Positions 6,148-9,805 are shown, counted from the stretch's first letter. The stretch is DNA of 63,295 bases from Candidatus Altiarchaeota archaeon (GCA_016931955.1 JAFGDV010000024.1:1-63295); one strand, 5' to 3'. Notes: generated by a model from the letters alone, not told the origin. A program made the numbers and translations.

Positions 6148-6177
6148 TCATATCTTCTTCGCCCAGAATTCGCATTC
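6148..6177 (-). repeat. Gene-end direct repeat copy 1 (reads ECEFWAKKI*)
   Basis: GAATGCGAATTCTGGGC GAAGAAGATATGA on minus strand. Confidence 0.9.
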
Positions 6178-6193
6178 TAGGAGTTGTTCTGTG

Positions 6194-6625
6194 TTATCTC
6201 TGTTTTTTGATTTCTTCTTCTATTGTTTTGAGGAATTTTTCGGCTGTTTTGATTGCGTGTTTGGCTTCGTATTCGGATATTGTGCCTGCTTGGTCGTATA
6301 TTGTGGCGTGTCTTTTTCGTCTTAGTCGGTCGAATGCTGTTATTTCTTTCCGGTATTTGTCGCCTAATGTGGTTTCGGTGAATTTTATCACTGCTAGGTG
6401 TTGTTTTTCGCCTGTTGGTCTGTATCCTTTGGAGAACATGAGGGCTCTTGCTGCCTGTAGGATTGAGTTGTATGCTATTGTGAATGCCCAGTCGATGCTG
6501 TTTTCGTATGTCTTTTTTGCTGTTTCGAGGTCTCTTTTCGCTAGTGTGAGTGAGTTTTCTATTTGTTGTTTGTTGGCTGGTAGTTTTTGTATCATGCCTT
6601 TTCGTTCTAGGTCTTCTGTGTTCAT
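6194..6625 (-). CDS. HEPN domain toxin (MNT-HEPN pair)
   Basis: AYNSILQAARAL helix and R-X4-Y/H-type motif RRKRHATIY; coupled to upstream nucleotidyltransferase. Confidence 0.85.
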   Translation of the reverse strand: MNTEDLERKGMIQKLPANKQQIENSLTLAKRDLETAKKTYENSIDWAFTIAYNSILQAARALMFSKGYRPTGEKQHLAVIKFTETTLGDKYRKEITAFDRLRRKRHATIYDQAGTISEYEAKHAIKTAEKFLKTIEEEIKKQR

Positions 6626-7173
6626 ATTAGTTTTATCTGTTTTTCTTTGAGTATGTTGGTTATGTAGGGGTCTTTTTGTTGTTTTCTTGTTTCGAATTCT
6701 TTTTTGCTGTAGGTGGAGTAGTTTATTTCTCTGTTTAGTTGGTCTTCGAGGCGTCTTATGATCTCAGATAGTCTGTCTTGGTCTGCGTCGCCTATGATCA
6801 TGAGGTCTATGTCGCTTTTTTTTGTTTCTTGGTTTTTTGCGTATGAGCCGTAGATGAATGCCTGCTCTATGTTGCCTATTTTTTTGAGTTCTTTTTTTAT
6901 TTCGTCGCCTATTGCGGTGGTTTTTAGTATTATTTTTTTGAGTTCTTCGTGTATTGGGTTTTTTTTGTCTGCTGTATAGTATCTGATGTTTCCTTGTTTT
7001 CTGCTTTTTATTATTCCTGCTTTTTCGAGGTTTTTGAGCTCTCTTCTGACTGCGTTTGTGTTTTCTTTGAGTTTTCTGGCTGTGTCTCTTAGGTAGTATT
7101 CGTTTTCTGGGTTGGTGAGGAATAGTGTGAGCAGTTTTACTCGTGTTTTGGAGGTTATGATGTGTTCTATCAT
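6622..7173 (-). CDS. wHTH + minimal nucleotidyltransferase (MNT) antitoxin
   Basis: N-terminal ArsR-like wHTH; YGSYAK...SDIDLMIIG; start 7173 or 7182 (the longer ORF reads through repeat copy 2). Confidence 0.88.
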   Translation of the reverse strand: MIEHIITSKTRVKLLTLFLTNPENEYYLRDTARKLKENTNAVRRELKNLEKAGIIKSRKQGNIRYYTADKKNPIHEELKKIILKTTAIGDEIKKELKKIGNIEQAFIYGSYAKNQETKKSDIDLMIIGDADQDRLSEIIRRLEDQLNREINYSTYSKKEFETRKQQKDPYITNILKEKQIKLI

Positions 7174-7213
7174 TGTATACATATTGTACTCAATAGTATA
7201 AAAATTGTATACA

Positions 7214-7251
7214 TCATATTTTTTTGCCCAGAATTCGCATTCACTGAATCC
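7214..7251 (-). repeat. Gene-end direct repeat copy 2 (GFSECEFWAKK, 1-nt shorter A-run)
   Basis: GGATTCAGT GAATGCGAATTCTGGGC AAAAAAATATGA. Confidence 0.9.
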
Positions 7252-7266
7252 TAACATCAGAATAGG

Positions 7267-7293
7267 GGCTTACTTGAATGCCAGCGTCTTCAC
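7267..7293 (-). repeat. Remnant copy of the FIST gene 3' end (VKTLAFK*)
   Basis: 24/27 nt identical to 9836-9862 (VKALASK*). Confidence 0.75.
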
Positions 7294-7703
7294 TGTTTTT
7301 CTGTGATTTTCAGGAATTCTGTGCTTGTGAGTATCTTTATTCCATCGTATTCTTTCAGGTTCAGCAGGTGTTTGTCTCCGGATACTATGTAGTCTGCTTT
7401 GCCTGCTTTTGCGCATTCTAGGATTTTGTTGTCTGCTGGGTCTTCTTTTATGGCGGTTATCTTTTTTTCAGGAGTCGTCAGATGTGATATTGCTAGTAGT
7501 AAGTGGATCATTTCGTTTATCTGGTTTGTGTTGTATCTGAATTTGGGTTTTATCATCACTTTGCGGAATTCGTCTAGGAGGTCTTCTGAAGTTGAGAGTG
7601 TTATTTCTTGGTTCACTGCTTTTTCCAGTATCCGCCATTCTTTTCCGCCGTATTTTATGAACGCTGATATGTGTATGTTGGTGTCGAGGACTGCTTTGAT
7701 CAT
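7290..7703 (-). CDS. vapC: PIN-domain toxin (VapC-like, PIN_3 type)
   Basis: AVLDTNIHISA, DPADNKILECA, YIVSGDKHLL. Confidence 0.92.
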   Translation of the reverse strand: MIKAVLDTNIHISAFIKYGGKEWRILEKAVNQEITLSTSEDLLDEFRKVMIKPKFRYNTNQINEMIHLLLAISHLTTPEKKITAIKEDPADNKILECAKAGKADYIVSGDKHLLNLKEYDGIKILTSTEFLKITEKQ

Positions 7704-7948: not shown

Positions 7949-7959
7949 CTTCAACCGCC

Positions 7960-7984
7960 TGTAAGAATGTAAAACTTTCTTACA
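7960..7984. promoter_or_regulatory. Inverted repeat, probable autoregulatory operator of the AbrB-PIN module
   Basis: TGTAAGAA-N9-TTCTTACA directly upstream of the antitoxin start. Confidence 0.55.
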
Positions 7985-8023
7985 TTTATCTATTCACTAT
8001 GCAAGAATAAAAATAGCCCCCTT

Positions 8024-8053
8024 TTATATTTTTTTCGCCCAGAATTCGCATTC
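8024..8053 (-). repeat. Gene-end direct repeat copy 3 (ECEFWAKKI*)
   Basis: GAATGCGAATTCTGGGC GAAAAAAATATAA. Confidence 0.9.
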
Positions 8054-8065
8054 AGATTGTGGGGT

Positions 8066-8296
8066 TTATTTAAGTAGTTTTATTAGGTCTTGTTCTGAGA
8101 TTTTGGCTTGTTTTAGTATTCCTTTTATTGTCCCTATCTTTAGTTCGCCGTGGAGGGGTACTGTGCAGCCGGTTTTCCCTGATTCTGTTTCTTTGGTTAG
8201 AATGACGTGGCTGCCTTTCTGTCTTTTGGGTTTGTAGCCGAGTTTTGTGAGGGCTTTAATAAGCTCCTGCCCTGAGAGCTTTCTTAGTTTTAGCAT
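8066..8296 (-). CDS. hicA: HicA-family toxin
   Basis: LSGQELIKAL, RQKGSH, VPLHGELKIGTIKGILKQA. Confidence 0.93.
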   Translation of the reverse strand: MLKLRKLSGQELIKALTKLGYKPKRQKGSHVILTKETESGKTGCTVPLHGELKIGTIKGILKQAKISEQDLIKLLK

Positions 8297-8501
8297 GCTG
8301 TGTTACCTCGAATACTGTCATTATCGGCTTTTCTTCTGCTTCTTCGGCGGGGAATTCTTCTAGGTATAGTTCTGTGGCTTCTTTTAGGTTGGCTACGGCT
8401 TCGTCTACTGTTTTTCCTTGGCTTACTGTGCCGACTTCGGGGCATTCTGCCACGTACATGTCTTCTTCTTTGTGGAGTATTGCAGTGTATGTTTTTGTCA
8501 T
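8256..8501 (-). CDS. hicB: HicB-family antitoxin (short, no DNA-binding domain)
   Basis: YVAECPEVGTVSQGKTVDEAVANLKEATELYLEE. Confidence 0.92.
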   Translation of the reverse strand: MTKTYTAILHKEEDMYVAECPEVGTVSQGKTVDEAVANLKEATELYLEEFPAEEAEEKPIMTVFEVTQHAKTKKALRAGAY

Positions 8502-8551
8502 TTTTCGGGTGCTGTTAATGTTATTTAGGGCATACAGGTAAATAAAACGTC

Positions 8552-9805
8552 TCACAGTTTTTTAGCCCAGAATTCGCATTCACTGAACCCGGATGCGAGG
8601 CATTTCATCTCGTTCACATCCCATTTCTGTTCTGTTGCCTTGTTTAGTGTGCCTTCTATTATTCCTGCCAGGAAGATGCACAGGTTTGTGTGTATGTTGT
8701 TGACTCCTGCTGCATAAACTGATTCCTGCATTTTCAGTATTATTCTGTCCGTTTTTTTCTCGCTTCGCAGTATCCCCGCCTTCAGGTACAAAAAGAGATC
8801 CTCCAAATAGCTCAGCGCCGGATCTAATCCCCTCAACTCCGCCTTCTCCGCGATCCGTTCACCACATATCTTGCCCGCATACTTAGACATCACCGCGTGT
8901 CCTGGGGAGAGCGACAACAGATAGTAGTTCAGTACTTGGTCTGCAATAATGTAGAAGTCGTCTGTTAGTTCTTTGGAGCGTATTGGTGTTCTTTCGATGG
9001 AGTTTGTAATAATTTCGTTGAGTATGTTGTCGAGTTCTTCTTTGGTTAGTTGGTCTATTTCTGGTTTCTCTTCTTTTTCGTGTAAATATATCTCTATTTC
9101 GTTGTATTCGTCGCCTTTAGCTTGACATTTAGTTTCTCTACCATCCCAGATACCTCCAAAAAGCGCCTCCGCCTCCCCACAAAGGGCTCCAACCTCCATA
9201 AAGCACACTGAGCGTAAAGCATGAACGATGGAGGAGGGACATTCTCTTATGTGATGACTCACTCTTTTTGTAGTTCGGTCAACTCCTCCTGATTGTATGA
9301 AACCCCCACCTGCGTTCTTCCATCCTATCTTGTGTTTCTTTTGGTAGACCTCGTTCTCGAATATCTTCCAGAACAAACCAGTTTTACTTAACTTTTCAAT
9401 AAGTACGGAGAAACCCACGATATCTCCTAAGGCTGCGTTTGCCATATAATATCCAATCAACTTACTTATAGCATAAAGCTCATAGATTTGATTGGGATTT
9501 AGGTGAGGAAAAGAGAATTTTCGTAGATTAAGAAGATTTATATGCTCAAAGTCTCCGAGCTGTTTTCGTACTGGCTCTACCTCTTTGAATGCAACCTTGC
9601 CCAGGTTTTGGACAATCTTGAAGTTTTGAAATATGACTTTCCCTCCTTGTTGTCTTTCCCAGAGGTATCGTGTTCGGTCTAGTGCGTAGCCTGATATTAT
9701 TTGGGGGGAATCAAAGCTTATTGAGGTGTCTAGTCTTGTAGCGCAGTGGGGGCAGTATGTCCAGTTTTTCTCTGTTTTTGTGTTGCAGGCTGGGCATTTG
9801 GGCAT
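8552..9805 (-). CDS. Zinc-ribbon + tandem V4R-domain protein; its last 10 codons (8552-8581) are repeat copy 4
   Basis: CPAC..CPHC N-terminus; two V4R-type motifs (ECP..CFMEVG..ETKC; ESVYA..CIFLAGIIEG..EMKC...CEF). Confidence 0.75.
   Translation of the reverse strand: MPKCPACNTKTEKNWTYCPHCATRLDTSISFDSPQIISGYALDRTRYLWERQQGGKVIFQNFKIVQNLGKVAFKEVEPVRKQLGDFEHINLLNLRKFSFPHLNPNQIYELYAISKLIGYYMANAALGDIVGFSVLIEKLSKTGLFWKIFENEVYQKKHKIGWKNAGGGFIQSGGVDRTTKRVSHHIRECPSSIVHALRSVCFMEVGALCGEAEALFGGIWDGRETKCQAKGDEYNEIEIYLHEKEEKPEIDQLTKEELDNILNEIITNSIERTPIRSKELTDDFYIIADQVLNYYLLSLSPGHAVMSKYAGKICGERIAEKAELRGLDPALSYLEDLFLYLKAGILRSEKKTDRIILKMQESVYAAGVNNIHTNLCIFLAGIIEGTLNKATEQKWDVNEMKCLASGFSECEFWAKKL

Follow-up and report, generated by a model that had tools for sequence, protein, structure and literature searches.

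Phage 21 and e14 integrate at the 3′ end of the gene icd and carry a replacement end for it. Integrons gather small cassettes into tandem arrays; arrays without an integrase (clusters of attC sites lacking integron integrases, CALINs) exist among them, and toxin–antitoxin (TA) cassettes are typical cargo (PMC9668308). We report an array with features of both kinds in the genome of a Candidatus Altiarchaeota archaeon. In a stretch of 63,295 nt, hereafter the window, the 3′ end of a gene for a V4R-domain protein recurs four times, and three unrelated TA pairs lie between the copies. The array was very probably shaped by self-contained TA cassettes that were gained and lost one after another at a 17-nt core within the repeated gene end.

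Like integrons, including those of archaea (Ghaly et al. 2022, PMC9668308), the array consists of small one-operon cassettes in tandem and in one orientation, with a recurring recombination sequence. However, it has no attC-type folded site, IntI or attI, what recurs in it is the coding end of the host gene itself, and the other arrays of the genome use other sequences. With integrative elements at gene 3′ ends it has in common direct repeats of the gene end, a mostly synonymous replacement end, a displaced old end and stacking (PMC8371274). Unlike them, its units measure 0.5–1.1 kb, hold only a TA pair and no integrase, and are found at dozens of targets in one lineage. The array thus shares the replacement-end logic of integrative elements, without their integrase.

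Host Xer recombinases insert another class of integrase-less elements, the integrative mobile elements exploiting Xer (IMEX), at dif, where they can form tandem arrays bounded by the site. The dif site has two 11-nt inverted arms around a 6-nt spacer (PMC8371274); unlike it, the core described here has no 11-6-11 inverted repeat, and the site lies at a gene end and varies by locus. The tycheposon islands of Prochlorococcus are similar in that successive integrations at one site push older ones inward, with partial target copies between them, and in that populations are mixed for presence and absence (10.1101/2020.12.28.424599). However, tycheposons use tyrosine recombinases and tRNA targets (10.1101/2020.12.28.424599), whereas the array has no associated recombinase and arrays of its kind sit mostly at protein-gene ends. 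In Thermococcales, IntpTN3 recombines segments of at least 104 bp with low specificity, yielding inversions (PMC8371274). An integrase of that type, joining any two identical segments, would explain many host-derived repeats, but none is linked to the cassettes. In contrast to transposons and insertion sequences, the cassettes have no conserved termini and no fixed-length duplication (repeats run from 17 to ~600 nt), and TnpB, Cas1 and reverse transcriptase (RT) were not found, DDE families not having been searched. The array thus lacks the defining features of integrons (IntI, attC), IMEX (dif) and transposons.

TA loci were reportedly discussed as mobile cassettes by Pandey and Gerdes in 2005. 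A broad TA survey invokes horizontal transfer and recombination and, in the part of its text considered, names no mechanism and uses neither 'direct repeat' nor 'flanked' (PMC2701414). In the portions of the literature covered, we found no account of TA cassettes that have no integrase and lie between repeats of host gene ends. The footprint described here, with TA pairs set between duplicate pieces of host sequence and stacked at gene ends, is repeatable across an archaeal lineage. It offers a concrete model for TA mobility, and for small defence-type islands in genomes with almost no mobile-element machinery.

Three cassettes at the V4R gene end

The repeat core, the 17-mer GAATGCGAATTCTGGGC, is present in four exact copies on the minus strand (copies A to D, Table 1), against a chance expectation of 0.01; four were reached in none of 100 shuffles. 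No further match with up to two mismatches was found in the window. A scan of the whole 1.55-Mb genome (46 contigs), which an initial annotation of the locus had proposed, returned no more exact copies, and a version with two mismatches ends a V4R paralogue on contig C31 (the genome has five V4R paralogues). Outside this genome the 17-mer had a single one-mismatch match in 41 related genomes, and its four matches in IMG/VR lie in unrelated coding contexts at about the number expected by chance. A degenerate pattern of core plus tail had no match among metagenome contigs.

Between successive copies lies exactly one TA pair on the minus strand: HicB/HicA, AbrB/PIN, and a helix-turn-helix minimal nucleotidyltransferase (HTH-MNT) with HEPN. 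By ORF calls (open reading frames) and Pfam, the cassettes encode TA genes only and no integrase. The six genes are predicted to form type II TA modules, as cognate families are adjacent, HicB falling slightly under its cut-off, and each cassette seems to come with a TATA-like promoter of its own. The toxin stop codons are 12 nt (HicA), 47 nt (PIN) and 16 nt (HEPN) from the next core. Thus the initial annotation was right about four direct copies of the 17-mer (by exact search), one unrelated TA pair per interval (by Pfam matches for all six genes) and the 12-nt and 16-nt spacings. It also had the last copy abutting a convergent dedA gene: between the tail stop of copy D (6148–6150) and that of the convergent gene at 5501–6142 there are indeed 5 nt, whereas the name dedA has no backing from Pfam or NCBIfam.

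The longest ORF call for the MNT gene, 6622–7257 on the minus strand, starts at an ATG ahead of copy C and reads MLGFSECEFWAKKYD... This ORF is an artefact, produced by fusion with the displaced V4R end, and the true start is probably near 7179. For annotation, displaced gene ends and fused small ORFs such as this one are by-products rather than genes.

Core and tail vary differently among the copies. In the core, none of the four synonymous sites of GAA TGC GAA TTC is variable; in the tail, all five positions are (GCN, AAR, AAR, the last codon and the stop), and copies A, B and D still encode AKK-I/L-stop. The view of the initial annotation that each copy is an alternative V4R ending therefore stands for these three and not for copy C, the tail of which is one base short (GC- AAA AAA ATA TGA) with AKKI-stop out of frame. 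V4R homologues in nature end in KEL, KKI, KAV or KKL. Because coding is kept and the ends of natural homologues vary, the tails look like ends formerly under selection in different lineages, and the core looks like the place where exchange must occur. The differing, coding-preserving tail of each copy fits the expectation for incoming DNA that supplies its own gene end, and tails with such differences occur at three loci (C40, C38 and C23c). Because the closest V4R homologue in a set of 5.8 billion proteins, where homologues are named Candidatus Altiarchaeales, is only 67% identical, no near-identical orthologue was available for comparing tails. On the 5′ side of the core, copies A and C have nine further bases in common, with one difference, and copies B and D start 0–1 nt from it. 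Copy D is probably the oldest end.

Ahead of copy C lies a remnant of the 3′ end of the FIST-domain gene found upstream of V4R (Table 1). The remnant matches the FIST end at 9836–9865 in 25 of 30 positions (24 of 27 in the repeat scan), a score that none of 300 shuffles reached. Its VKTLAFK is nearer to the FIST end of the same-genus genome G001 (VVKTLAFKQE) than to that of its own genome (VKALASK). Nine bases separate it from an ATG, and four bases further on comes the V4R end of copy C, in frame. On the simplest reading of this order, the AbrB–PIN event seems to have duplicated ~1.3 kb, from the FIST end through V4R, the spare V4R being deleted internally at a later time. A single crossover with a circle carrying the stretch from FIST end to V4R would have this outcome. 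Duplicated segments are thus not always short. Whole-gene duplication followed by deletion, which the initial annotation had named as an outcome that would overturn its proposal, is thus seen in part: for AbrB–PIN, with its FIST remnant, ATG and V4R end, and for this one of the three cassettes only.

One may ask if all the cassettes are decay products, that is, larger elements or FIST–V4R duplications whittled by deletion until addictive TA pairs and scraps of gene ends were left. The FIST remnant, ATG and V4R end do resemble a collapsed second FIST end plus V4R, and some repeats in relatives are 218–591 nt long. We consider this explanation very improbable, given that copies B and D begin so close to the core, that the intervals measured in relatives are short and free of other gene fragments (see below), and that an allele without HicBA joins cleanly within the repeat.

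Alleles without cassettes

The full array was found in one sequencing run only, probably the source run, in which a Logan contig of 30,055 nt covers 3700–11200 with no differences and an even depth of 36. The genome is metagenome-assembled and the whole stretch comes from a single run, so that an assembly artefact stringing strain variants together has to be weighed. It is scarcely credible in view of this independent contig and of a like design in more than 20 other metagenome-assembled genomes (MAGs). Moreover, repeats of 17–26 nt are shorter than Logan's 31-letter words and therefore should not have collapsed in that graph.

Runs X2 and X3, which are equal in size and probably one data set filed twice, contain a 584-nt contig in which 7537–8029 (AbrB–PIN, with 12 differences) is joined to 8558–8648. 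The 528 nt skipped are the HicBA cassette. At the join from 8029 to 8558, 24 letters fit both sides, which puts the breakpoint between presence and absence inside the repeat. There is thus a strain, ~97–98% identical, that is without exactly the HicBA cassette. Copies A and B differ at five of 13 tail positions while this near-identical strain is still without HicBA. These differences therefore cannot be changes made in place since a target duplication, and the tail came in with the cassette.

A 4049-nt contig of run X4, from a relative ~89% identical, reads from the last 84 nt of V4R to the core and then, after 41 nt, into the convergent thermosome gene, the TA cassettes and the gene at 5501–6142 both being absent. 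In G001, the FIST and thermosome genes are convergent neighbours separated by a 66-nt A-rich spacer (L091, G001:C20 222–3134, against window 3797–11086). This lineage has therefore added V4R, the 5501–6142 gene and every TA cassette, and the thermosome–FIST interval is a growth zone. Where G001 has its A-rich spacer, the window has a T-rich CT-repeat spacer, ttttttcttctttttctttttcttttctttt, at 5447–5500, between the thermosome stop and the 5501–6142 gene. Coverage gaps of X2–X4 outside these contigs were not counted as absence. A search of metagenome contigs with the V4R protein gave 117 pattern matches, none of them from relatives. The empty sites and differing cassette numbers that the initial annotation had set out to look for are therefore present (X2/X3, X4 and G001), and the HicBA-less allele, with its join in the shared 24-nt block, supports its idea of separately added units, which behave as cassettes gained or lost exactly at the repeat.

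Arrays at other gene ends

Additional arrays were found by a k-mer scan of the genome and self-comparisons, and TA modules were located with phmmer seeds and Pfam, which gives an incomplete census. Repeat-bounded intervals hold 15 of the 19 located TA modules, and a like architecture occurs at six other places of the genome. The second array, on contig C23 (Table 1), carries five TA pairs, comprising HicBA, HTH-MNT/HEPN and three MNT/HepT pairs that lie in both orientations. In this array, HepT and host stop codons overlap within a CCTAGG palindrome. The third array is built on the end of a gene for a 354-aa protein with a hydrophobic C-terminal tail. Its copies separate RelBE, AbiEi/AbiEii, MNT/HEPN and several genes that belong to no Pfam family, among them a 482-aa ORF (23314–24762).

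Single or double cassettes make up the remaining places described here. One sits at the end of the MTHFR gene with a 53-nt flanking repeat, and another at the end of a DUF2341 gene, where 31 nt are identical and are followed by a diverged tail with the amino acids kept. A third lies between two small ORFs on contig C39, also with a 53-nt flanking repeat. A DNA search of five relatives for empty sites at the MTHFR locus gave weak partial matches only.

Table 1. Positions of the repeat copies, genes and arrays discussed in the text. Window coordinates unless a contig is given.
Feature	Position	Strand	Remarks
Copy A, live V4R end	8552–8590	−	core 8565–8581; tail GCT AAA AAA CTG TGA
Copy B, displaced end	8024–8054	−	core 8037–8053; tail GCG AAA AAA ATA TAA
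Copy C, displaced end	7213–7251	−	core 7226–7242; 9 nt more V4R sequence 5′ of core
Copy D, most distal displaced end	6148–6177	−	core 6161–6177; tail GCG AAG AAG ATA TGA
HicB-like antitoxin, cassette 1	8256–8501	−	Pfam HicB_lk_antitox E 1.4e-5, 25.7 bits, below cut-off 27
HicA toxin, cassette 1	8066–8296	−	Pfam HicA_toxin E 6e-19
AbrB/MazE-type antitoxin, cassette 2	7700–7954	−	Pfam MazE_antitoxin E 3.8e-9
PIN-domain toxin, cassette 2	7290–7703	−	Pfam PIN_3 E 1.1e-20
HTH and minimal nucleotidyltransferase antitoxin, cassette 3	6622–7179	−	Pfam NTP_transf_2 E 3.1e-13, HTH_5 8.9e-5
HEPN toxin, cassette 3	6194–6625	−	Pfam HEPN E 4.6e-13
FIST 3′-end remnant, encodes VKTLAFK-stop	7267–7296	−	starts at PIN stop codon
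Host gene, zinc-ribbon and V4R protein, 417 aa	8552–9805	−	Pfam V4R E 8.1e-22; ends ...SGFSECEFWAKKL
FIST-domain gene upstream of V4R	9839–11086	−	Pfam FIST E 1.8e-12
Convergent 213-aa membrane-protein gene bounding array	5501–6142	+	ORF
Second array	C23:11488–15632 (L027 3488–7632)		five copies, 35–105 nt, of 3′ end of 696-aa beta-propeller/TSP3 surface-protein gene
Third array	C23:18004–24941 (L084)		diverged copies (81%) of end of 354-aa gene C23:24833–25897
Tyrosine recombinase, 403 aa, C-terminal zinc ribbon	C38:51245–52456 (L030)		120 nt downstream of tRNA-Cys

Repeat-bracketed cassettes in related genomes

Within the family, flanking repeats were detected at 18 of 30 HicA loci (28 in other genomes and two in this one), and the spacing was ≤1000 nt at 15. 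The same test applied to 300 random windows of this genome gave 17 and 8, several of these matches being TA arrays themselves. In other families of the phylum, repeats flank six of 17 HicA loci (four at ≤1000 nt), and in the family outside this genome they flank seven of 27 HepT loci (five at ≤1100 nt). PIN-protein loci from many phyla at ≤55% identity, which represent another TA family and are a weak control, had flanking repeats in three of 19 cases and a spacing of ≤1000 nt in none of the 19.

Altogether the repeat-bracketed architecture is found at some 25 loci of relatives. Tight repeats in the family are 24–243 nt long, and looser pairs reach 591 nt. Fifteen repeats were compared (13 tight pairs, the looser one of L035 and the window's own) and are mutually unrelated, save for one tRNA end common to two loci. 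Each is local host sequence. Housekeeping genes contribute 3′ ends (PEP synthase, aldolase and RFC) and, in the case of RNase HII, a stretch immediately beyond the gene. Other repeats are the 3′ end of an ArsR-type regulator gene, the 5′ end of a SepSecS-like gene, and a 218-nt piece (98%) made up of the promoter and 11 initial codons of a dehydrogenase-like gene. At tRNA-Phe and at another tRNA, HicBA cassettes of relatives are bracketed by tRNA-end repeats of 25–39 nt.

Homology stops sharply at both repeat ends at all ten loci tested. In 12 of the 15 tight family HicA intervals, which were measured, 446–675 nt lie between the repeats, of which ~450–480 nt are coding, and these intervals contain no integrase or other gene fragments. 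The DNA common to related HicBA cassettes at different loci is promoter and genes only, and no conserved motif or termini could be seen by eye at cassette ends.

These features invite an explanation in which the insertion itself duplicates its target, through a staggered cut or template switching at a stalled fork, so that repeats are born identical and diverge later. It would fit host-derived repeats at every locus, sharp boundaries with no residual flank homology (the ten loci tested), and the wide range of repeat lengths, which template switching predicts. Some repeats are perfect (L042, 111 nt, and L039, 27 nt, both at 100%), and insertions at gene 5′ ends duplicate promoter and start (L042, L120). 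Nevertheless, we regard it as quite improbable. Copies A and B have their tail differences although the 97–98% identical strain still has no HicBA, and tail changes preserve coding at C40, C38 and C23c. Moreover, no Cas1, RT or transposase-like gene (TnpB), no conserved cassette termini and no donor cassette copy were found in the genome.

In two genera, HicBA lies just upstream of the same SepSecS-like aminotransferase gene with different repeats (L042 in G015 and L048 in G017). The 111-nt repeat of L042 covers the start of the aminotransferase gene, and the 30-nt repeat of L048 lies 177 nt upstream. These look like independent hits on one hot spot. In a further genus, L031 (G002:C11) carries at 3967–4080 an orphan C-terminal V4R fragment of 38 codons, 58% identical to residues 379–416 of the V4R protein in the window and with one TAG. 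It adjoins a 76-aa ORF that is AbrB-like by eye, between unrelated genes, and may be a displaced V4R end.

Recombination machinery

A PF00589 search of the genome, which is 92% complete, found one tyrosine recombinase, on contig C38 (Table 1) and thus outside the window, where the search found none. The protein resembles XerA only weakly (72 bits; cut-off 220) and with the integron-integrase model it scores 21 bits (cut-off 265). tRNA-Cys and the recombinase together occupy C38:51049–52456, and a 15-nt copy of the tRNA-Cys 3′ end lies 9.6 kb downstream, at C38:60736–60750. Given its adjacency to tRNA-Cys and this tRNA-end copy, the recombinase is taken as the integrase of an integrated element, and the region may be such an element of ~9.6 kb. 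The region directly after the C38 integrase is poor in ORFs. The recombinase family is patchy, occurring in 11 of 22 family genomes, and with this query it was not found in G002, which has ten HicA matches. No serine recombinase was found in the genome, nor were Cas1, RT or TnpB.

The junctions themselves show no recognizable site architecture. Rfam gave no match up to E=5 in 5400–10000 bar one chance lncRNA, the presence of an attC model in Rfam 15 being unverified. Eight junction folds had z from +0.28 to −1.48, no better than shuffles. For the dif 11-6-11 architecture, the best arm matches at the four junctions were 5–7 of 11, equalled by 91–500 of 500 shuffles. No relatives of the HEPN protein were found in IMG/VR.

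The initial annotation had described a system with neither attC hairpins nor a local integrase, and folds, Rfam and the PF00589 search agree. It had further proposed an att site in a protein gene, served by a recombinase acting in trans, and a comparison with dif. One dedicated site of that kind is not supported, given unrelated host-derived repeats elsewhere and a sole tyrosine recombinase that is tied to tRNA-Cys, and the comparison showed no dif-like inverted repeat at the junctions. Overall, the interpretation in the initial annotation is supported in part.

Classical site-specific integration, the reading of the initial annotation, would make the cassettes mini-elements with the V4R-end core as attP, moved by a tyrosine integrase acting in trans from a larger element, and other loci would then use other integrases. 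The exact 17-nt core, the sharp 3′ boundary, the cassette-borne replacement tails and the precise absence of HicBA in the X2/X3 allele all agree with it, as do the tRNA-end repeats of 25–39 nt around HicBA in relatives and the apparent limitation of crossovers on C23 to the last 20–30 nt. Tandem stacking and integrase loss are also known for archaeal integrated elements (PMC8371274). Against this stand at least 20 unrelated repeats of 17 to ~600 nt, which could be served only by many integrases or by one of very loose specificity, and a core with no inverted-repeat architecture. The genome's one tyrosine recombinase is that at tRNA-Cys, no serine recombinase accompanies it, and the recombinase family was found in only half of the family genomes and, with this query, not in HicA-rich G002. 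We thus consider site-specific integration unlikely.

A possible cassette cycle

Because the repeats are so varied across the lineage, we favour recombination guided by identity with resident sequence. In particular, we lean towards an integrase-independent crossover in the short block common to the cassette and the resident gene end. The best reading is a lineage-wide habit rather than one dedicated att site. In such a cycle, the HicBA, AbrB–PIN and HTH-MNT/HEPN operons would have been added successively at the V4R 3′ end, with the newest cassette presumably next to the gene. Cassette DNA, most simply a small circle, would bring a short copy of the V4R end, and one reciprocal crossover within the 17-nt identical block would insert it. 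The gene would gain the cassette-borne tail, the old tail would be pushed downstream, and the reverse crossover would excise the cassette precisely. A circle excised from core to core would contain exactly core and tail, with no V4R sequence 5′ of the core, as copies B and D do. Host homologous recombination or a low-specificity recombinase would carry out the exchange, rather than an integrase with one att site of its own. TA pairs probably dominate the cargo since their addictive property makes loss costly.

Several observations weigh against this cycle. An identity block of 17–26 nt is short for homologous recombination, and the first acquisition of a new host-site copy falls outside the model; replication template switching and circularised chromosomal fragments of related strains are possibilities. 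Four TA modules (on C31, C37 and C46, and the second C38 cassette) have no detectable flanking repeat, the C37 locus having a repeat score of z 2.5 that ten of 300 shuffles reach. In the second array, on C23, CGA stands in all four displaced copies at a site where the live gene reads AAG, and two of the displaced copies have ~55 nt of further identity 5′ of this site. Provided that insertion takes place beside the gene, all crossovers at C23 must therefore lie within the last 20–30 nt, a pattern more reminiscent of a fixed crossover point than of free homologous exchange. The tRNA 3′ ends among the targets are a classic integrase substrate. No near-identical cassette copy was found elsewhere in the genome, and against 61 genomes of the phylum the best match of cassette DNA was 81% over 99 nt, the rest being 64–80%. 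Contigs contained no circle or excision junction, and the source run had only the full array, although contigs drop rare variants. Finally, most family loci come from fragmented MAGs.

Even so, the repeat-bracketed design points to a still unexplained movement of small gene pairs. If recombination is independent of a cognate integrase, the design would represent a cassette platform distinct from integrons. It is a tentative possibility that Altiarchaeota have a general cassette capture with no dedicated integrase, in which TA operons travel as minimal circles, the copy of their last host neighbour serves as att, and they recombine with the corresponding sequence in another cell. Were this so, any gene end, tRNA end or promoter region could grow an integron-like array, and this could be the long-sought route by which chromosomal TA modules move.

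Other features of the window and genome

The membrane-protein gene at 5501–6142 matched no Pfam family at E≤0.01 and no NCBIfam family, and no flanking repeats were found around it. Direct repeats of 250–375 nt and 300–450 nt occur in large ORF regions of the window (55300–56200 and 62000–62600) and at C5:111400–112200. They share the word GGAACATACATATA, have no relation to the TA repeats and probably correspond to repeated domains in surface proteins. At C9:19170–19620, three 172-nt units with a conserved part of 61 nt are arranged head to tail.

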